From positions 101,689 to 118,154 of IMG/VR virus record IMGVR_UViG_3300032038_000024: a DNA stretch of 16,466 nt; one strand, written 5' to 3'. Positions 6,376 to 16,443 of this stretch are shown one piece after another (the stretch's first letter is position 1; every line of letters starts with the position of its first letter). Under the pieces are notes generated by a model. That model did not search any database. It worked only from the letters and a program-made list of their open reading frames with translations, and was not told the DNA's origin. The position numbers and the translations under genes were made by a program. This DNA is from a virus (taxonomy: Duplodnaviria > Heunggongvirae > Uroviricota > Caudoviricetes).

Positions 6376-6999
6376 TTAATCTCCCCAATAGGTGCAACCC
6401 TTATAAAAATTGCGGACAGACTCAGTCAAATCCTCAGCATCCTTTTTCATCTTAGCCTCAGTTTCAGCATCGACAATAAGCTCAATATGTGGGCGGAAGC
6501 AAACCTGATGTGAATTATTTGAAGCTTCATAAGTGAGTTTCCAACCCATAGCCTTCTTGAAATATTTGTTATTCTTAACGGCCTCAAAGCAACGTCCAAG
6601 CTTAGTAGGAGTCAATTCCTTGTATGAAATACAACAGTCGCCTGAGATACCCATTTCTCCAGGATTTACATCAAAATCAAAGAACGAGAGGTCATAATAG
6701 AAATCACTCATTTTGTATTCCTTGCGAGCCTTTGCAACCTCAGACTCAATATAAGCAGTACGCTTCTTCTCAGTCTTCCATTTCTTTTCAGCAAAATTGA
6801 TGGCGCGCTTGCGAGCCCATTCCATGTGGCTAAAGAAATTTCTTACCTTAGAGGCCTCCCACTCAGGAATATAGAGGTCATTGTATTTCTCCTCAGCCTC
6901 AAGAAAATCAGAGAACATTGCGCGGATAAACTCCTCAGCAGTAATGGTTGAACAGTTGATGTTACGGGAAGTAAGAATAATAGTGCGATAATCGTTCAT
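6376..6999 (-). CDS. Hypothetical protein, probably highly expressed early gene
   Basis: 207-aa ORF, much higher GC than its flanks (28/60 G+C at 6721-6780), many GAG/AAG/C-ending codons, with its own promoter motif and terminator. Confidence 0.8.
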   Translation of the reverse strand: MNDYRTIILTSRNINCSTITAEEFIRAMFSDFLEAEEKYNDLYIPEWEASKVRNFFSHMEWARKRAINFAEKKWKTEKKRTAYIESEVAKARKEYKMSDFYYDLSFFDFDVNPGEMGISGDCCISYKELTPTKLGRCFEAVKNNKYFKKAMGWKLTYEASNNSHQVCFRPHIELIVDAETEAKMKKDAEDLTESVRNFYKGCTYWGD

Positions 7000-7068: not shown

Positions 7069-7151
7069 TTTTATAAGAAATTTTTTATATTATATTTAAT
7101 GAATTAATTAATATTTTTTTACTATTTTTATTTAATTATATAGAGGCTATA

Positions 7152-7790
7152 ATGAAAACAATATTGATAATTTCTCCTCATGGTGATGATGAATTGCTTG
7201 GCATGGGTGGATATATTATAAATGAAATACAAAAAGGTAATAAAGTTCATGTAATATTTGGCACTGATGGATATCCAGAAAAAAGAAATAGTGAAATAAG
7301 AGCAACAGAAATTAAAGAGGTTGCTGAATTTATTGGGTTTACATATGAAATTCTTTATCATAATATGGATTGCCTTTTATATACTATTGATAAACGAGAA
7401 ATAACCAGAAAAATTGATAAACGAATTGAAGAATTAAAACCTGATGAATTTTATTGTTGTTATCCATCTCATCATCAGGATCATGAAACAATGTATGAAT
7501 GTGCACGTGTTTGTATGAGACTTAAGGAAGGATGGATTCCAAAGATATATGGACTTTATGAATATATATTTGTAGATCCATTATCATTACCACAAGGTGG
7601 GCTTATGTATATTGATATAAGTTATGCAATTGATAAAAAATTAGAAGCATTTAAGTTATATAAATCACAAAATAAAAAATCTCCGTCTCCACTTAATATA
7701 GATAATATTAAAACATTTGCAGCAATGCGTGGATTACAATGTGGTAAACAATATGCTGAACTGATATACATACAAAAAATAATAAGTTAA
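7152..7790 (+). CDS. PIG-L/LmbE family N-acetyl-sugar de-N-acetylase
   Basis: Metal-binding 'SPHGDDELLGMGG' (HxDD) and 'HHQDH' (HxDH), plus the C-terminal 'YIDIS.AIDKKLEAFKLYKSQ...RGLQCG.QYAE' typical of the family. Confidence 0.9.
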   Translation: MKTILIISPHGDDELLGMGGYIINEIQKGNKVHVIFGTDGYPEKRNSEIRATEIKEVAEFIGFTYEILYHNMDCLLYTIDKREITRKIDKRIEELKPDEFYCCYPSHHQDHETMYECARVCMRLKEGWIPKIYGLYEYIFVDPLSLPQGGLMYIDISYAIDKKLEAFKLYKSQNKKSPSPLNIDNIKTFAAMRGLQCGKQYAELIYIQKIIS

Positions 7791-7793
7791 TAA

Positions 7794-8615
7794 ATGAATA
7801 TTTGTATATGTCAATTAATAAAAGATGAACAAAGATATATTGAAGAATGGATAGATTATTATCTTAATTTTGGTATATCAAAGTTTATATTATTTGAAGA
7901 TTTGAATAGTACATCTCATAATGACGTATTATCAAAATATGGAGATAAGGTTATTCTTCATAAATATAATGACATTGTAACTAAAGATGATGAAAAATAT
8001 TTTGTTGACATACGGCAAGAAGTAATTTGGGCTGTATTTTATAGAATATATAAAGATAAATTTGATACATGTTTGTTTATAGATCCTGACGAATATTTAA
8101 ATTGTTCACCAAAAAATTTTTTAGAAGAAGTAGAATATTTCAAAAATGATCCAAATGTACATTCAATTTATTATAGATGGTTAACACGAACAGCATCAGG
8201 TCATATTAAAGATCCATATCCTAATAAAACATATTCTGTCGTTAAAACATATACAAATGTTTTGTACGGATATAATATGATAAATAAATTAAGTGAATAT
8301 AATAATAAAGATTATAATTTTCAACGTAAGCATTTAGTTTACTTGAATAAGTTAAAAACAGTAAATGATTTTCAAGCTCCACATGGCGATAATAATTATC
8401 ATTATGAACAAGAATCATTATTCAAGTTAAATCATTATTTAACAAAATCTTGGGAAGAATATAAATGGCGTTTACTTATAAAAGGTGAACAAGTTAAAAA
8501 ATGGGGTCGAAGATTAGAAGATTTCTTTGTAATAAATCAAGATTTATTACCATATAAAGAAGAATTAATAAATGAATGTAAAGAACTAAATTATAAATAT
8601 AATGATGAGATTTAA
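7794..8615 (+). CDS. Glycosyltransferase, GT2-like/GT92-like (GT-A fold)
   Basis: 'IKDEQRYIEEWIDYYLNFGISKFILFED', DxD motif 'FIDPDEYL', C-terminal 'LNHYLTKSWEEY' as in Glyco_tranf_2_4/GT92-type proteins. Confidence 0.85.
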   Translation: MNICICQLIKDEQRYIEEWIDYYLNFGISKFILFEDLNSTSHNDVLSKYGDKVILHKYNDIVTKDDEKYFVDIRQEVIWAVFYRIYKDKFDTCLFIDPDEYLNCSPKNFLEEVEYFKNDPNVHSIYYRWLTRTASGHIKDPYPNKTYSVVKTYTNVLYGYNMINKLSEYNNKDYNFQRKHLVYLNKLKTVNDFQAPHGDNNYHYEQESLFKLNHYLTKSWEEYKWRLLIKGEQVKKWGRRLEDFFVINQDLLPYKEELINECKELNYKYNDEI

Positions 8616-9499
8616 TGATAACATGCTTAGTATTTGGTAATGGATATATATGTAAATCATTTATTGACCAATATCATGATAATATAAAGTTCATTATCAT
8701 AGATCATTCATTATACGATGTATTAAATCCAAATTATGAATTAATTGAATATTATATCAAATTAAATTCAAATAACAAAATAGATGTATTAATTGATAGT
8801 ATATGTCCAATATTACCAACATCTGAATATTGTAATAATAATATTAACTTATTATCAAAAACAATTCATCATATTTATTATATAAATACTTTATTGGTAA
8901 AATTAGGAATTAAACATATTATTTATTTATCATCAGCAGGTATAATATATGATAAACAAAATTATAATGAATCATTATCATATAATCATATAAATACATT
9001 ATATGGATTATTGAAAATTCAAAGTGAATGCACATATAAATATTTTAGCGACATAAATAAAGATATTAATTATAAAATATTAAGAATATCAAATGTATAT
9101 GGAAACATAAAATATCATTCATCAAATAGTAATGGGATTATTAATATATTGATTAAAAATTATTTAGCACATAAACAAACTGATATAACATTAAACAATA
9201 GTATTAAAAACTATATTTATATAAAAGATTTATGTGAAATCATGTATAAAATATTGTTATTTAATTTTGATAATAAGTTTGAAATAATTAATATAGGCAG
9301 TATATATGATTATTCAATAGAGGATATTATAAGTATATTGCAAAACAAATATATATTGGATATTAATTATAATAAGAATAATATTTATAATGATAATCAA
9401 TATCATATAGATATTAATAAAATTAAAAATATTTTTACAGATATAAAATTTCATTCGCTTGAAGATATTATACAAAATACAAATATAAATAATATATAA
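8615..9499 (+). CDS. NAD-dependent NDP-sugar epimerase/dehydratase (extended SDR)
   Basis: Degenerate Rossmann start 'VFGNGYICKSF', 'IIYLSSAG', catalytic YxxxK 'YGLLK', 'LRISNVYG', 'YIYIKDL', 'INIGS'. TAATG overlap with the upstream gene. Confidence 0.85.
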   Translation: MITCLVFGNGYICKSFIDQYHDNIKFIIIDHSLYDVLNPNYELIEYYIKLNSNNKIDVLIDSICPILPTSEYCNNNINLLSKTIHHIYYINTLLVKLGIKHIIYLSSAGIIYDKQNYNESLSYNHINTLYGLLKIQSECTYKYFSDINKDINYKILRISNVYGNIKYHSSNSNGIINILIKNYLAHKQTDITLNNSIKNYIYIKDLCEIMYKILLFNFDNKFEIINIGSIYDYSIEDIISILQNKYILDINYNKNNIYNDNQYHIDINKIKNIFTDIKFHSLEDIIQNTNINNI

Positions 9500-10555
9500 A
9501 TGAAAAATTGGAAAGCATATATATCATATTGTTATGAACAACAAAAATATGAATATAATCTAAAAGAAAATGATAATATAAAATTGATTAATGTATTTAA
9601 TAATCAAGATGGTGAAGATAATATTAATTATTTAAATCATTTTTATTCTGAATTAGTAATGTGTTATTATGTTTGGAAGAATCAATTATATTCTGATTAT
9701 GTATGTATATGGGATCATCGACGTTTTATAACACCTATTAATTTTGATAAATTAGATGATAATTGTATTCAAGCATATTATCATAGATATACTAATTTGA
9801 CTCCATTTGAATATATGATTCATGAAGGCATAAATGAATATATTGTTTGGCAGTTTATAAAATTTATGATAGAGGAGAAACATATAGATCATGATTTAGT
9901 AATTGATACAATATTTAAAAAATCATGGGAGAACAGATTATGGTTACATAGTTGTTTTAATTGTAATTGGAATGTTTTTAATGATTTATGTAAATTTATG
10001 TTTGATTTTGTAAATTACTTAATACCTAACGGTGATTACACTAATTATGAATCTCTTGAACAATTTGTTAAAGATATGAAAACATCAATATGTATATTGA
10101 AACCAAAATATAAGAAAAATGAAATAATTGATGGTGGACGTATTGAAGGTGAAGATAGAGTTATAGGTAATATTTATGAAATGTTATTACCTTTATATTG
10201 TGAATTTGTTGGATATAAATCATTCAGTGAAATTGAAGATAAACATATTGCATTGACATTATTTTCATATAATAAAGAAACTGTAATTGAAGATATTAGA
10301 AAATGGATTGCAAAAAATATTTTTACTGGTTGTAGAGATTTTGCAATTATAACAACTGAAAATAAATATAATGAATTGAGAGAAATTATAGATAATAATT
10401 GGTATTATATGGGTAATAATACCATAAAATTATTTACTGATAAACAAAAACAATTGTTTCATAATTATATAATATTAGGAATAAATAATTATATTGATTC
10501 TTACTCACCAGTAAATGATATTGATAAAAATAACATAAAGAAAATTAATATATGA
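9500..10555 (+). CDS. DUF4422 (GT111-like) putative glycosyltransferase with C-terminal extension
   Basis: 'NINYLNHFYSELVMCYYVWKNQLYSDYVCIWDHRRF' matches the DUF4422 pattern N..Y.ELT..YW.WKN....YIG..HYRR; later 'RVIGNIYEMLL'. Confidence 0.7.
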   Translation: MKNWKAYISYCYEQQKYEYNLKENDNIKLINVFNNQDGEDNINYLNHFYSELVMCYYVWKNQLYSDYVCIWDHRRFITPINFDKLDDNCIQAYYHRYTNLTPFEYMIHEGINEYIVWQFIKFMIEEKHIDHDLVIDTIFKKSWENRLWLHSCFNCNWNVFNDLCKFMFDFVNYLIPNGDYTNYESLEQFVKDMKTSICILKPKYKKNEIIDGGRIEGEDRVIGNIYEMLLPLYCEFVGYKSFSEIEDKHIALTLFSYNKETVIEDIRKWIAKNIFTGCRDFAIITTENKYNELREIIDNNWYYMGNNTIKLFTDKQKQLFHNYIILGINNYIDSYSPVNDIDKNNIKKINI

Positions 10556-11277
10556 AGAAATTAGTTTTGTTTGTATCTACAAATTTTGATAGATCACGAG
10601 TTAATAATAATTTTTTTAATGGAACATATAATCATTTATTTGATGAAATAAAAATATATAATGAAAACGATTTACCAGATAATATTAAAGAGAATATAAA
10701 TAATATTATGGAAAAATATGGTAAACGTGGATATGGGTTTTGGGTGTGGAAAACTTATATATTATCACATGAATTAGAACAATTAAATGATAATGATATT
10801 TTAGTACATTTAGATTCACATTGTTTTTTAGAAAATATTGAACCAAAACTTGATGAATATTTTGAATTATTACAAACCATGGAAAAACCTTTACTTGTTG
10901 GTTGGTGTTGGGATGCAAATGATTTAATGTTTAATACAAAAAAATTAATTGCATATGTTGGCAAACAATTGAATTATAAATTTTCACGAGAAGAGTTAAA
11001 ACAAAAACAAGCTGAAGGTGGTATTTTATTTATGCGAAAAAATAAGTTTATAGTTGACTTTATAAATTTATGGGATAAATTACTTAATGATGGAATTGAA
11101 TATGTAAGTGATAATTATAATACAAAAAAATATACATATAAAGAATTTCAAGATCACCGTCATGACCAAGCCCTTCTTAGTTTGTTATGTAAATATTATA
11201 AAATACCAGTATTTAAGCCATTTGGATGGGATGATTTAAATCGTGTAAATGGAAAACAAATATCATATAAAGAATAA
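10552..11277 (+). CDS. Putative GT-A-like glycosyltransferase/sugar-modifying protein
   Basis: 'RGYGFWVWKTYIL', 'NDILVHLDSHC' and 'EFQDHRHDQALLSLL' match a recurrent phage/giant-virus/bacterial glycosyltransferase-like family (GYW.WKP...D...HRHDQS). ATGA overlap with the upstream stop. Confidence 0.65.
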   Translation: MKKLVLFVSTNFDRSRVNNNFFNGTYNHLFDEIKIYNENDLPDNIKENINNIMEKYGKRGYGFWVWKTYILSHELEQLNDNDILVHLDSHCFLENIEPKLDEYFELLQTMEKPLLVGWCWDANDLMFNTKKLIAYVGKQLNYKFSREELKQKQAEGGILFMRKNKFIVDFINLWDKLLNDGIEYVSDNYNTKKYTYKEFQDHRHDQALLSLLCKYYKIPVFKPFGWDDLNRVNGKQISYKE

Positions 11278-11278
11278 A

Positions 11279-11306
11279 AAATCCATACTCCTAAGAGTAT
11301 GGATTT
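11279..11306. terminator. Intrinsic terminator between convergent operons (probably bidirectional)
   Basis: Perfect 12-bp stem AAATCCATACTC-CTAA-GAGTATGGATTT; T-run follows on the - strand and a T-rich tract on the + strand. Confidence 0.85.
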
Positions 11307-11336: not shown

Positions 11337-12167
11337 TTAACGTGAATAATTCTCATTCTTAGGTTGGTCAACCTTTTCATCAGTACCGTAAACTTGACGA
11401 TACTTTTGGAAATCTTCATACTTTACTTTTACAATAAGTCTCTTACCCATACGGTTACGAAGACCTAAATCAGTACGAAGAACAAGACCTTCTGCCATGT
11501 ATTCTCTGTTCTCAGAAATTGTTGAAACAAATCCCTTACGAACAAAATCAATTGCCTCATCAAGAGTAAAGTAACCAATGAATGGAACAATAGGTGCGCC
11601 AAGCTTAGTTGCAATTTCATCACGAGCTGAAGTTAAAAGATAAATATCGTTTACCTTAACATCAAACACAATGAACTCATTACCATTCTTAATGTAATTT
11701 CCACCCTTCTGAATACCATTACCATATCCTTCACCATAGATAGTATAAATATTAGGAATTTGGTCATACTCTAACCAGTTGTGGTCAATTTCCCACTCTG
11801 ATGTAGGAATGAATTCCTTCAAACCAAGTGATGCAAGAACCTTTTCCTTTGGATATTTCTCTTCCATGTGCTTAAGCAACTTTGGAGGAATCTGAGCATT
11901 GTCAGTCTTACCAGCATAACGTACATTAAACTTTACACCTGCACAAGATGGAACTTTTGATGTTTCTGACGGTACAATCTCCTTAGTAACCTCAATACGC
12001 ATATTAGTACCATCAATCTTTTCCTCACCACGCCACTTCAAACCACGAAGATACTCGAACTCAGGTTCAGTAAATGGCTCGAATGGCATAATAACATTCT
12101 TTGCATCACGCATGAAGATTGTGTTAATCTTCTGATAAGTGTTTTCGCTTCTTTTTTGTTTTCCCAT
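11337..12167 (-). CDS. ATP-dependent RNA ligase, Rnl2-like
   Basis: Nucleotidyltransferase motifs: I 'EEKIDGTN', III 'IYGEGYG', IIIa 'FIVFDVKV', IV 'AEGLVLR', V 'IVKVK'. Single adenylation domain with no OB-fold extension, which favours an RNA over a DNA ligase. Confidence 0.85.
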   Translation of the reverse strand: MGKQKRSENTYQKINTIFMRDAKNVIMPFEPFTEPEFEYLRGLKWRGEEKIDGTNMRIEVTKEIVPSETSKVPSCAGVKFNVRYAGKTDNAQIPPKLLKHMEEKYPKEKVLASLGLKEFIPTSEWEIDHNWLEYDQIPNIYTIYGEGYGNGIQKGGNYIKNGNEFIVFDVKVNDIYLLTSARDEIATKLGAPIVPFIGYFTLDEAIDFVRKGFVSTISENREYMAEGLVLRTDLGLRNRMGKRLIVKVKYEDFQKYRQVYGTDEKVDQPKNENYSR

Positions 12168-13008: not shown

Positions 13009-13734
13009 TTATTTTATTCCAAAAATATCAAATAACTTATATTTTACTTTCCTCATATGACAACCAAACGGAAGACGATTATAAAGTTTTGGATATAACG
13101 AATATGTTTGATTTTCTGCACTAAATTTTATTGCATCATCAATAGTTATGAGTTTCAAATCATTTTGTAAGTTAAAACAAATAAACATGTCTTCATTCAT
13201 TGTAACTTTTGAAAATCGTTCTTTTTGTTTCCAACATATATCATAAAATGATTTGACATTTCTTAATGAAAATCCTCCATTAAATGCAACATTTTTATAT
13301 CCATGAATATCAATATCTTTATCACCAAATATTGCTTTATAATTATCATCAAATAAAATTAGTGCTCCAGTATAATCATATCCTTTATTACACCATTCTA
13401 AAAGTTCATCTCTAAAGATATAAGCATCTGTTTGGCAAATCAACATATATTTATATTCTTTGAAACTTAGATAAAATTTATAATTAAGACACATTTGTGA
13501 ATATTGTTCTCGTGTCTTAAATTCAAAGAATTTATATCTTACATTATCAGCATCAAATCTTTTATAAAATGATATATCTAAATCCTGTGAACATATAAAA
13601 TATATATCATACTTATGCATTAATTTTAATGTATGATATATAGATTCAACCTCATCATATAATAAAGGATCTTTAATATTATCTTTATAAATAGGAATAA
13701 CTATGCAGACGTCTTTGTTTGTTATTTCTTCCAT
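13009..13734 (-). CDS. DUF5672 family glycosyltransferase-like protein
   Basis: 'CIVIPIYK', 'YMLICQTDAYIFRDELLEWCNKGYDYTGA', 'FNGGFSLRNVK', 'NEDMF', 'AIKFSAE' and 'LPFGCH' are characteristic of DUF5672. Confidence 0.85.
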   Translation of the reverse strand: MEEITNKDVCIVIPIYKDNIKDPLLYDEVESIYHTLKLMHKYDIYFICSQDLDISFYKRFDADNVRYKFFEFKTREQYSQMCLNYKFYLSFKEYKYMLICQTDAYIFRDELLEWCNKGYDYTGALILFDDNYKAIFGDKDIDIHGYKNVAFNGGFSLRNVKSFYDICWKQKERFSKVTMNEDMFICFNLQNDLKLITIDDAIKFSAENQTYSLYPKLYNRLPFGCHMRKVKYKLFDIFGIK

Positions 13735-14244: not shown

Positions 14245-14368
14245 ATTGTTTTCTGCTAAATTTTATATTAACAATTTTACCAGTTTTCTTATCTTTTACA
14301 ACACAATATTTTTTAAAAAAATAGTAAGGATCTTTAAGACATTTTATATATTCTTCTTTATTATTCAT
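14180..14368 (-). CDS. Small protein resembling the N-terminal segment of T4-like large terminase
   Basis: 'EEYIKCLKDPYYFFKKYCVV' fits the TerL N-terminal pattern EEY.KC..DP.YF...Y..I. ATGA coupling with the upstream gene; overlaps the next gene by 65 nt; no ATPase motifs. Confidence 0.55.
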   Translation of the reverse strand: MNNKEEYIKCLKDPYYFFKKYCVVKDKKTGKIVNIKFSRKQYERFIKYTTTSNFRKTSAFAF

Positions 14369-14901
14369 ACATTCAATATCTGTTTAATTTTCCTATAATC
14401 TTTTTTTGTCAAACCGGTCCAAGGATTTGTTTGAACAAAATGTTTCTTTTGAGATTCCAACATATCGTTATCATCATCAACTATACAATAATTTGAAATA
14501 ACAAAATCTTCTTTCATAACTTTTTTATAATCTGAATATTGTCCATTTGTTATATCAAAGAAGTATTGTATTTCTTGTCCACGATGTCTACTTTTTGAAT
14601 AAGGAGTAACACCAACAATATATGGACATAACAATTGTATTCCATGATGATTAAATTCTCCTAAACCCAAACCATCTCTCATAAATTCATCATAACATTG
14701 CTGCCATGAATTACCATTACGCCATGATGAAGATATTACAAGTTTAACGTTATAATCTTTACAGAATCTTGACATACGATAGCATTCACGAGGATCTATG
14801 CTACCGTATTTTCTAATATGATTTTTATGTCTCCAACAATCATATTGAGCACTATTCATTACTCCGTCAATATCCAAAAAGATTACTTTATATTCATTCA
14901 T
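14365..14901 (-). CDS. HAD-superfamily phosphatase, HAD_SAK_2-like (RNA-repair-associated)
   Basis: 'KVIFLDIDGVMNS' (DxD), 'LVISSSWR', 'RGQEIQ', 'IVDDDNDML', 'FVQTN...GLT'. The likely start is ATG 14901 (MNEYKVIF), overlapping the upstream stop; the track extends to 14952. Confidence 0.8.
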   Translation of the reverse strand: MNEYKVIFLDIDGVMNSAQYDCWRHKNHIRKYGSIDPRECYRMSRFCKDYNVKLVISSSWRNGNSWQQCYDEFMRDGLGLGEFNHHGIQLLCPYIVGVTPYSKSRHRGQEIQYFFDITNGQYSDYKKVMKEDFVISNYCIVDDDNDMLESQKKHFVQTNPWTGLTKKDYRKIKQILNV

Positions 14902-15487
14902 ATATATTTTTAAAATCTTTACAAAGATCATTATATTGTTGCAGTTCTTCACATTTATTTGGTAAATTACGACATCTTAATAAATGTTGGAATCGTAATT
15001 CAAAATTAAGAGCCATTGAATTTTGAAAGAATTGCTTATTAAGAACTTTAATTGCTCTTATTGCTTCTGTTTCTGTAATACCGTCCTCATAATTAGTTTG
15101 AACAAAATGATATAATTGTGAGTCAAGCATATCCCCGTCGTCATCAATTATAACATAATTATTAACTTCGGGATGTTTATCAAGCCATGTTTGTATTTCA
15201 CCACCTCTTCCAGTACCCTTATATTTCTTATCAGAAAACCAAGTTGTAACATCATAAATATTATCAACAAGCCAATAAAGCATTTTATTTCTTGGACATC
15301 GTTTTGTTTTTCCAATCATATCATTAATTGTCTCTTTAACATTTTCACGACGCCAAGATGAAGATACAACAATTTTTGCATCAGTTTTATCTACAATTTT
15401 CTTAATCCATTTTATTTTATTTGCATTAATATACCACTTGGGCGGAATTGTTATAACTCCATCAAAATCAAGAAATATTACTTTCAT
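14894..15487 (-). CDS. HAD-superfamily phosphatase, HAD_SAK_2-like (paralog)
   Basis: 'KVIFLDFDGVI', 'IVVSSSWR', 'RGGEIQTWL', 'IIDDDGDML', 'FVQTNYEDGITE'. The likely start is ATG 15487 (MKVIF); the track gives 15499. Confidence 0.85.
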   Translation of the reverse strand: MKVIFLDFDGVITIPPKWYINANKIKWIKKIVDKTDAKIVVSSSWRRENVKETINDMIGKTKRCPRNKMLYWLVDNIYDVTTWFSDKKYKGTGRGGEIQTWLDKHPEVNNYVIIDDDGDMLDSQLYHFVQTNYEDGITETEAIRAIKVLNKQFFQNSMALNFELRFQHLLRCRNLPNKCEELQQYNDLCKDFKNIYE

Positions 15488-15590
15488 GTTTACTATCAAT
15501 ATCTACCCCATAAATATAATATGCTGTTTCTTCATAAGACATATTATCATAATCTGGAAAATATGGTTTATAAGTTACTATATGACTCAT
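15468..15590 (-). CDS. Small hypothetical protein (40 aa), not in the ORF track
   Basis: MSHIVTYKPYFPDYDNMSYEETAYYIYGVDIDSKHESNIS; ATGA overlap with the stop of 15587..15943; fills the gap in the operon. Confidence 0.45.
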   Translation of the reverse strand: MSHIVTYKPYFPDYDNMSYEETAYYIYGVDIDSKHESNIS

Positions 15591-16212: not shown

Positions 16213-16443
16213 TTATTGTCCTAATTGGAACTCCAAAAATTCACAATCATTTGTCCAAGTAATATTTGCCTTTTCAAACATTGCTGAAACTTGTGCATAT
16301 AAAACTGAATTGACAAACGGTAATTTAGACACCCAAATGCCACGTTCCTCATCTCTTACAGGTTGTTCACCATGCATTGACAACTTACCGTTCTTATTAA
16401 CACCGGCCCAAACTTTAATTGACTTCTTTTTAAAAAAACTCAT
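16213..16443 (-). CDS. Hypothetical protein
   Basis: 76-aa ORF with an ATG in AT-rich context and a TAA stop. Confidence 0.7.
   Translation of the reverse strand: MSFFKKKSIKVWAGVNKNGKLSMHGEQPVRDEERGIWVSKLPFVNSVLYAQVSAMFEKANITWTNDCEFLEFQLGQ

Follow-up and report, generated by a model that had tools for sequence, protein, structure and literature searches.

We analysed 16,466 nucleotides of DNA from a tailed virus (Caudoviricetes; IMG/VR record IMGVR_UViG_3300032038_000024, positions 101,689 to 118,154), a stretch referred to here as the window, and in particular the five-gene operon at window positions 7152-11277. An earlier note had described this operon as a set of coupled genes for soluble, glycan-building enzymes in a jumbo-type phage. 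Comparison with 60 related loci, collected from ENA, Logan, JGI and IMG/VR, showed this operon to be a single allele of a glycan-synthesis cassette, accessory and swappable, that occupies a hypervariable slot in the phage genome.

Five coupled genes for soluble sugar-active enzymes

The five open reading frames (ORFs) all lie on the plus strand and are joined, in order, by a 3-nt gap, a 1-nt TAATG overlap, an abutting junction and a 4-nt ATGA overlap, whereas both immediate neighbours lie on the minus strand (Table 1). The G+C contents of genes 1 to 5 are 27.9, 22.9, 16.5, 21.1 and 23.4%, against 37-41% in the two flanking genes. The coupling, the junctions, the opposed strands and the AT-richness that the earlier note had described are thus all borne out by the ORF and composition data. 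No membrane span was predicted in any of the five proteins when a 19-residue Kyte-Doolittle window was applied with a cut-off of 1.6 (maximum, 1.53), and no Pfam family of a Gtr-type gene (the GtrA flippase, the GtrB bactoprenol glucosyltransferase or a membrane Gtr(type) protein) was found in the window or in the sister cassettes, in agreement with the soluble, Gtr-free gene set originally proposed.

Table 1. Features in and around the cassette slot, numbered from the first letter of the window
Feature	Position	Strand	Evidence or conservation
Backbone gene, 207 aa, no family; left edge of slot	6376..6999	-	87-97% identity, whether or not the relative has the cassette
Candidate promoter and ribosome site in cassette-borne leader	7081..7151	+	Conserved ahead of whichever gene leads
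PIG-L/LmbE-family zinc de-N-acetylase, 212 aa; conserved cassette anchor	7152..7790	+	Pfam PF02585, 1e-19
GT2-like GT-A glycosyltransferase, 273 aa, DPDE motif; optional module	7794..8615	+	Pfam PF13704 (Glyco_tranf_2_4), 1.2e-8
Extended-SDR nucleoside diphosphate (NDP)-sugar 4-epimerase-like enzyme, 294 aa	8615..9499	+	Pfam PF01370 (Epimerase), 2e-14; TIGR01179 galE, 4e-7
GT111 (DUF4422, WbbM-like) glycosyltransferase, 351 aa, including a C-terminal alpha/beta domain of ~100 residues	9500..10555	+	Pfam PF14393, 9e-6
Virus-enriched GT-A nucleotide-sugar transferase, 241 aa, no Pfam family; fast-evolving	10552..11277	+	AlphaFold2 (AF2) fold
Hairpin terminator of the backbone, common to the convergent RNA ligase gene	11279..11306		Perfect 12-bp stem
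RNA ligase gene; right edge of slot	11337..12167	-	Pfam PF09414, 9e-16; 81-97% identity, whether or not the relative has the cassette

The match of the first protein to PF02585 (71.7 bits; cut-off, 28.2) covers profile positions 1-126 of 129. In an alignment with the diacetylchitobiose deacetylase 8bgn, the motifs HxDD (H10, D12 and D13 in SPHGDDE) and HxDH (H108-H111 in HHQDH) are kept, and the protein also aligns with BC1534 and BshB1. The curated models closest to it are BshB1 and BshB2, both scoring far under their cut-offs (54.6 bits against 182.5 for the BshB1 equivalog TIGR04001); by these scores the window PIG-L protein is a member of the family and not a BshB orthologue. For the GT2-like gene that follows, the sole orthologue found is 59% identical and lies in locus L090. 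The Pfam match of the SDR enzyme is limited to its C-terminal two thirds, and its score against the galE equivalog falls far below the cut-off (29 against 262); its top PDB match is the UDP-glucose 4-epimerase 4zrm. Invariant in five orthologues are GxGxxC (GNGYIC, 8-13), SS (106-107), Y130xxxK134 and RISNVYG, and the alignment of these five contains no dehydratase TDE motif.

The assignment of the fourth protein to PF14393 is marginal (26.1 bits; cut-off, 25). Its AF2 model (pLDDT 84) gave one significant match in the PDB by Foldseek, to WbbM (6u4b, E 6.7e-8), and 11 phage paralogues share its conserved motifs YYxWKN and HRR. WbbM, the only characterised member of GT111, is an O-antigen UDP-galactofuranosyl transferase (PMC12269835). 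Neither the window nor those sister cassettes that were examined contained a detectable UDP-galactopyranose (UDP-Galp) mutase, and the GT111 gene has instead a fixed SDR partner; its donor could be UDP-galactofuranose (UDP-Galf) supplied by the host, or may be a different one. The C-terminal domain of this protein (residues ~250-351) also occurs as a free-standing ORF of 70-74 aa in L003:9770-9994, 52% identical, between radical-SAM and GT-A genes.

The fifth protein matched no Pfam or NCBIfam model, and no CAZy family could be assigned to it; a profile search against PDB sequences returned chance-level matches only, and the identification was made by structure comparison alone. The AF2 model (pLDDT 91) adopts a GT-A nucleotide-diphospho-sugar transferase fold. 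It resembles uncharacterised tailed-phage and giant-virus proteins in the AFDB and ESM clusters (TM score ~0.8), which are named nucleotide-diphospho-sugar transferase or GT34 or are fused to GT2/GT10, and shows weaker but consistent similarity to GT8, GT6 and GT34 structures in the PDB (probability at least 0.97). The invariant residues are G60-x-G-x-W-x-W-K, D82, D88 and R203-H-D-Q. This fold family is almost wholly viral, comprising proteins of tailed phages and giant viruses, the latter in part fused to GT2, GT10 or methyltransferase domains, and at least 210 relatives are present in IMG/VR, many of them in giant-virus bins. A 31%-identical homologue is encoded in a bacterial-looking, GT2/GT10-rich locus with a small EamA/SMR-type membrane protein and biotin-synthesis genes. 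Two protein groups are defined by this analysis: a large virus-enriched GT-A family that lacks a Pfam model and, within GT111, a subfamily that has an SDR enzyme, not a mutase, as its fixed partner. The original reading of the operon as one de-N-acetylase, one epimerase and three glycosyltransferase-like enzymes is upheld by Pfam and, for the DUF4422 and fifth proteins, by folding and structure matching.

The operon is one allele of a re-assorting cassette

The backbone on both sides of the slot, consisting of the 207-aa gene, the RNA ligase gene and, farther out, the helicase and HAD genes, is 81-97% identical in relatives, and what lies between differs from locus to locus. In L100, L138 and L102, whose helicases are 96, 91 and 85% identical to that of the window, the slot is a spacer of ~150-290 bp that ends in the hairpin and holds no cassette. 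The slot of L001, a 467-kb contig, contains PIG-L and GT-A only, that of L093 contains GT-A, PIG-L, SDR and GT111, and the window has the five-gene version. Larger versions are found in L088 (GT10, PIG-L, GT25, SDR, GT111, GT-A and GT111) and L003, where a radical-SAM enzyme accompanies an array of over 12 transferases (six or seven GT25, GT92, GT10, several GT111 and GT2). A similar array occupies a second slot, beside a homologue of window positions 16213-16443, in L087, L090 and L241, the last being a 367-kb contig with ~12 transferase genes around PIG-L. GT25 and GT10 are both included in the cassettes of L088, L090, L087 and L098; PIG-L is followed by a WbqC-like gene in L092, and one sister cassette has a radical-SAM gene beside PIG-L. 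No membrane protein is encoded by any of the cassette variants read here.

PIG-L is 79-97% identical in all sister cassettes, and every informative contig also encodes a protein of the gene-5 GT-A family, at identities of only 38-66%. The invariant core of the cassette consists of these two, a PIG-L de-N-acetylase and a virus-type GT-A transferase. The SDR and GT111 genes always form an adjacent pair, with SDR directly upstream. Neither the PIG-L nor the GT-A family is present in the essentially complete relatives G001 (376 kb) and G002 (410 kb). Among the conditions under which its reading would fail, the earlier note had listed a bacterial surface-polysaccharide locus co-assembled by error; such a chimaera is excluded, since the cassette lies between the same phage genes in independent assemblies.

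The empty slot of L102 (L102:12322-12618) contains three tandem copies of a ~40-bp unit (…TTCACAAGGAAATTTATGAACTTGTTATATTCAAAA…), of which L138 has one full copy, and this arrangement suggests that the insertion site is a spot of repeat-prone recombination.

Leader, terminator and metatranscriptomic contigs

The leader ahead of the first gene carries an AT-rich conserved element at 7114-7142 (T6-ACTATTTTTATTTAATTATAT) and the sequence AGAGG at 7142-7146, 6 nt before the ATG. It is conserved in L001, L093, L087 and L094 upstream of the first gene, PIG-L or GT-A alike, and is missing from the empty slots of L100, L138 and L102. Promoter scans with TTTGAAT, TTATTTTTA-type, TACTAT-type and sigma-70 patterns gave, in every case, no more matches than chance would yield in DNA so rich in A and T.

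At the other end, the perfect hairpin that had been read as closing the operon stands as a structure (free energy -15.9 kcal/mol, z -6.5) but not as a part of the operon: because it is found also where the cassette is absent, it belongs to the phage backbone, and its T-tract is on the minus strand, the side of the RNA ligase gene. The window, L001, L093, L100 and L138 have the same outer hairpin arms (AAATCCA…TGGATTT), and the inner stem and loop vary with compensating changes, as would be expected of a functional terminator.

DNA of the operon is present in gut metagenomes of sheep and cattle from several studies. A metatranscriptomic run yielded contigs that are identical to stretches of four of the operon's five genes, one of which crosses the hairpin into the ligase gene; these contigs are assembled, and the library may contain DNA, so that they do not establish transcription. 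Apparent joints that skip parts of the operon have sides of no more than 21-46 nt, come from a mixed metagenome and were given no interpretation.

Phage lineage, host and neighbouring genes

The wider neighbours of the cassette are a primase-helicase gene, the RNA ligase gene, a Tad2-like gene and HAD phosphatase genes. The 1211-aa helicase matches the jumbo phages PAU, PTm1/PTm5, pT24 and MA9V, and the close relatives, all uncultured, were assembled from rumen and gut samples of sheep and cattle as contigs of 367-467 kb, sizes that agree with the jumbo-phage setting suggested at the outset. A Shine-Dalgarno site is absent from most window genes, as expected if the host is of Bacteroidota type. 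A giant-virus origin of the window was considered on the grounds of the low G+C content, the missing Shine-Dalgarno sites, DUF5672 and the giant-virus-like GT-A protein, and was ruled out because the flanking genes encode a T4 gp13-like protein and a helicase of jumbo-phage type.

No near-identical DNA was found in cultured phages, and a tblastn search of cultured phages with the GT111 protein gave no match; when IMG/VR was scanned with the GT111, fifth and PIG-L proteins one at a time, no close relatives came up. The relatives were reached only through the protein collection, the JGI metagenomes and the helicase query. Distant PIG-L genes (22-29% identity) are present in the cultured Vibrio phage V-YDF132 (L086, 56790-62785) and in the Stenotrophomonas phages DLP3 and DLP5. 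Near PIG-L in these phages are a large transferase gene and a ParB-like gene, to which the DLP3 cluster adds WcaG, WecE and a methyltransferase; this context differs from that of the cassette, and the target there may be DNA.

Several other genes in the window are shared by the relatives. A DUF5672 protein (1e-39) encoded at 13009-13734 on the minus strand is 58-67% identical in relatives with and without the cassette, and its nearest atlas clusters are from Bacteroidota and phages. Two adjacent HAD_SAK_2-type paralogues, 14365-14952 and 14894-15499 (minus strand), are ~30% identical to each other and conserved in relatives. The 21 called genes of the window end in TAA (16) or TGA (5) and never in TAG, which is also missing in frame; this avoidance may be a mere effect of AT bias. 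Among relatives of Lak-type megaphages, however, TAG is recoded.

A separate hydroxymethyl-cytosine module

The earlier note had called for a search for a base hydroxymethylase elsewhere in the genome, and one was found in relatives. The complete genome G001 encodes a T4 gp42-type dCMP hydroxymethylase (E 6e-53 to PDB 1b49) within a 5-hydroxymethyl-cytosine (hmC) module (L152:8481-17558), which comprises genes for a RimK-like ligase, a dNMP kinase-like protein, the hydroxymethylase, a sugar nucleotidyltransferase, a HAD protein, a 343-aa SDR enzyme, an APH-like kinase and a TET-associated glycosyltransferase (TAGT; PF20691). The module recurs in many rumen contigs (for example, L243:7501-20705 and L233:417-10699), and its tailoring end is variable. 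In one variant TAGT is replaced by a carbamoyltransferase and a carbamoyl-phosphate synthase, which hints at carbamoylated hmC. In the lineage that has one of the sister cassettes, proteins of 533 and 159 aa stand at the TAGT position and a separate 224-aa DUF4422 gene is inserted; the 533-aa protein was compared with the 536-aa protein beside PIG-L in L241, and the two are not homologous.

Hydroxymethylase genes are present in both complete relatives. A second, shorter ThyA/gp42-like paralogue is also found in G001 (L150:1402-2040) and in G002 (L240:9689-10249), in the latter directly after the first copy. No hydroxymethylase was found in G003 and G004, which are 16-18% fragments, and pattern scans of IMG/VR with two hydroxymethylases overlooked known carriers. 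Given these genes, it is likely that this phage group contains hmC DNA.

The relation between the module and the cassette could be followed through two proteins, the PIG-L protein P0200 (85% identical to that of the window) and the hydroxymethylase P0052, each of which is listed on seven contigs, the longest being 367,273 bp, which is also the length of the record that includes L241. Because the two agree in contig count and in longest contig, the hmC module and a sister cassette very probably occur together in one phage genome. The two systems lie ~100 kb apart, as measured in G001, and the cassette comes and goes independently of the module. Its transferases are not conserved wherever hmC is made: both G001 and G002 have a hydroxymethylase and lack PIG-L and the fifth-protein family. 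Since the hmC module has sugar genes and a transferase of its own, the cassette is unlikely to be the primary DNA glycosylase. The predicted isoelectric points also differ, the cassette enzymes being net acidic (5.2-6.3) and TAGT basic (8.7).

Comparison with known glycosylation systems

Operons for virion O-glycosylation are reportedly carried by the mycobacteriophages Che8, Corndog and Myrna. Like the cassette, these mycobacteriophage operons and the giant-virus clusters for capsid or fibril glycosylation combine soluble viral transferases with nucleotide-sugar tailoring enzymes and build a cytoplasmic glycan without host export machinery; PBCV-1 A64R (PDB 2p6w) and Mimivirus R699 (PDB 9dyt) are among the weak fold matches of the fifth protein, whose fold family is shared with giant viruses. 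Unlike those clusters, the cassette includes PIG-L, GT111, GT25 and GT10, lies outside the structural module, is present or absent and re-assorted among near-identical relatives, and is known from its genes alone.

A second likeness is to pathways in which a transferase adds N-acetylglucosamine (GlcNAc) and a zinc de-N-acetylase of the PIG-L/LmbE family then exposes its amine, namely BshA/BshB (bacillithiol), MshA/MshB (mycothiol), PIG-A/PIG-L (the glycosylphosphatidylinositol anchor) and BtrM/BtrD (aminoglycosides); the metal and base motifs of the de-N-acetylase are conserved here. The partner of PIG-L in the cassette, however, is a GT-A and not a GT4 (GT-B) enzyme, no downstream ligase is present, the transferases come in multi-gene arrays, and the BshB score is below its cut-off. 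The LOS (lipooligosaccharide) and O-antigen loci of Klebsiella O2a (WbbM) and Kingella (pamABCDE; PamA, PMC12269835) likewise bring together soluble GT111, GT25 and GT10 enzymes, whereas the cassette, phage-borne and with 16.5-27.9% G+C, has no UDP-galactopyranose mutase, initiating transferase or export genes.

To the DNA-modifying systems, namely the T-even alpha- and beta-glucosyltransferases and the 5mYOX- and ThyS-associated GT-A/GT-B and epimerase pathways of metaviromes (bioRxiv 10.1101/2023.12.21.572611; PMC13229309), the cassette is linked by its epimerase-transferase pair, carried in a phage group with a gp42-type hydroxymethylase. N-acetylhexosamine (HexNAc) on 5hmC is a documented product of such pathways, in which both GT-A and GT-B enzymes depend on an epimerase (bioRxiv 10.1101/2023.12.21.572611). 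The cassette differs from these DNA-glycan systems in lying ~100 kb from an hmC module that has its own transferase, in having a deacetylase and in reaching up to ~12 transferases.

In its predicted working the cassette resembles known glycosylation modules of viruses. It has no Gtr genes, its PIG-L protein scores far below the BshB cut-offs and, unlike a T-even-type DNA glucosylation system, it is not conserved wherever hmC is made; judged by these features, it is not a member of the T-even, Gtr or BshAB systems, and literature searches turned up no characterised phage pathway with this combination, as the earlier note had supposed. What sets it apart is an accessory slot among replication, RNA-repair and anti-defence genes, the joining of GT111, GT25 and GT10 with an orphan viral GT-A family, re-assortment between strains and a coexisting hmC module.

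A proposed pathway and its acceptor

The chemistry of the families concerned (BshA/BshB, MshA/MshB, PIG-A/PIG-L and BtrM/BtrD) suggests the following steps. A transferase, presumably the GT-A enzyme, would place HexNAc, probably GlcNAc from UDP-GlcNAc, on an acceptor, and PIG-L would then remove the acetyl group to leave the free amine of glucosamine (GlcN), the kind of sugar that had been anticipated for this operon and that the logic of a HexNAc transferase with PIG-L does predict. The SDR enzyme would supply the GT111 transferase, its fixed partner, with an epimeric NDP-sugar, and the GT2-like enzyme would add a further residue, so that the product would be a short GlcN-containing oligosaccharide.

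The acceptor is the least certain step of this proposal. We tentatively favour, with a probability of roughly 0.4, proteins of the phage particle (capsid, tail or fibre), which would then wear a glycan coat that varies between strains, as in mycobacteriophages and giant viruses. A pathway whose end point is an acceptor in the cytoplasm would agree with the lack of membrane proteins in the cassettes; an acceptor or linkage that varies would account more readily than a constant one, for instance a DNA base, for a GT-A protein that diverges (38-66% identity) against a backbone more than 90% identical; and the fusion of this fold family to glycan-building enzymes in giant viruses was counted for particle glycosylation. 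Other observations weigh on the opposite side. The cassette lies outside the structural genes, among neighbours that have the look of a region for early or counter-defence functions. The classic families of lipopolysaccharide (LPS), LOS and O-antigen synthesis include GT25, GT10, GT111 and WbqC, whose soluble members normally use lipid-linked acceptors. The phage group is predicted to make hmC, which would provide an acceptor in DNA. The donor sugars, the order of the steps and the GT-A enzyme as the one adding HexNAc are all things that we infer, and the giant-virus GT-A fold sits in elongating multidomain enzymes, by analogy with which the cassette enzyme may not be the initiating transferase. 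The earlier note had also argued from the absence of membrane segments to a cytoplasmic acceptor; this does not follow, because soluble transferases of O-antigen, LOS and capsular polysaccharide (CPS) synthesis (GT25, GT10, GT111 and GT2) use lipid-linked acceptors.

Another candidate acceptor is the envelope glycan of the host. Soluble cassette transferases would then act at the inner membrane face on undecaprenyl-linked LPS, CPS or glycoprotein-glycan intermediates, and the flippase and ligase of the host would export the altered glycan; the changed surface might, for example, exclude superinfecting phages or stop progeny from adsorbing to debris. The families represented across the cassettes (GT25, GT10 fucosyltransferase, GT92, GT111, GT2 and WbqC) speak for this, WbbM being an O-antigen enzyme, as does the bacterial-looking GT2/GT10 locus that encodes the 31%-identical homologue of the fifth protein. 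Surface-glycan loci typically vary between strains, and neighbours of early or counter-defence type would suit host takeover. Yet the cassette variants read contain no initiating phosphoglycosyltransferase, flippase, polymerase, ligase or Gtr-type membrane protein, their universal GT-A protein belongs to an overwhelmingly viral fold family, and the phage looks virulent and is very large; we know of no lytic phage that rebuilds host O-antigen with a cytoplasmic transferase array. We consider such remodelling of the envelope somewhat unlikely. A small-molecule product would be a GlcN-conjugate made by the transferase and PIG-L, comparable to bacillithiol, mycothiol or paromamine and serving as a redox buffer or an inhibitor. 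The order of glycosyltransferase and then deacetylase is a hallmark of thiol and aminoglycoside pathways, BshB1 and BshB2 are the top curated matches of PIG-L, albeit far below their cut-offs, and a radical-SAM gene adjoins PIG-L in one sister cassette. All the same, we regard a product of this kind as highly improbable, given that the cassettes encode no BshC/MshC-type ligase, no aglycone-forming enzyme and no GT4 transferase of the BshA/MshA type, and that arrays of 5-12 transferases build polymers and not thiols.

Phage DNA, a leading candidate in the earlier note, keeps a place among the possible acceptors and is weakened as the main one. HexNAc would here be added to glycosylated or bare 5-hydroxymethyl-cytosine and its amine unmasked by PIG-L; a cationic sugar in the major groove would block restriction and CRISPR nucleases, and the variation of the cassette would reflect an arms race with modification-dependent nucleases. 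The relatives do encode a gp42-type dCMP hydroxymethylase beside a dNMP kinase-like gene, and the P0200 PIG-L and P0052 hydroxymethylase very probably share one genome. The two-gene cassette of L001 would suffice for GlcN-hmC, and the Stenotrophomonas and Vibrio phages have PIG-L and a transferase beside ParB-like genes, in Stenotrophomonas with sugar-tailoring genes as well. Against this, the hmC module brings its own nucleotide-sugar genes and transferase (TAGT in G001, the 533-aa protein in the cassette lineage), the module is present without the cassette in G001, near-identical relatives have an empty slot, and no ParB, dioxygenase or hydroxymethylase gene adjoins the cassette. The sister cassettes of ~12 transferases imply glycans far larger than any that, to our knowledge, have been seen on DNA, and the acidity of the cassette enzymes against the basic TAGT is a weak argument in the same direction. 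Epimerase-dependent phage transferases are known to put Hex, HexNAc and disaccharides on 5hmC (bioRxiv 10.1101/2023.12.21.572611), whereas neither that paper nor PMC13229309 describes a deacetylase acting on a DNA-bound sugar. We judge an extended DNA glycan unlikely. Its most specific form, in which the GT-A enzyme would add GlcNAc to hmC or to its first sugar and PIG-L would deacetylate it in situ, giving a cationic glucosaminyl base re-assorted by cassette swapping against modification-dependent nucleases, seems distinctly unlikely; if true, this base would be a DNA hypermodification not yet described.

Implications

Whichever molecule receives the glycan, megaphages of a lineage common in ruminant guts carry a modular "glycan toolkit", in which a PIG-L anchor and a fast-evolving partner are joined by 0 to ~12 further transferases that are swapped among near-identical genomes. 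Glycosylation by phages is known from few systems, namely the DNA glucosylation of T-even phages, the particle glycans of mycobacteriophages and seroconverting prophages. In this pattern of swapping we see the signature of an arms race played out on a molecular surface, be it the particle, the host envelope or DNA. If the DNA reading is true, huge phages would build a new cationic DNA modification; if the envelope is the target, they would rewrite the surface of their hosts. If, as we tentatively favour, the acceptor is the phage particle, huge phages would wear strain-specific sugar coats, which would bear on mucus adherence, immune recognition and host range.

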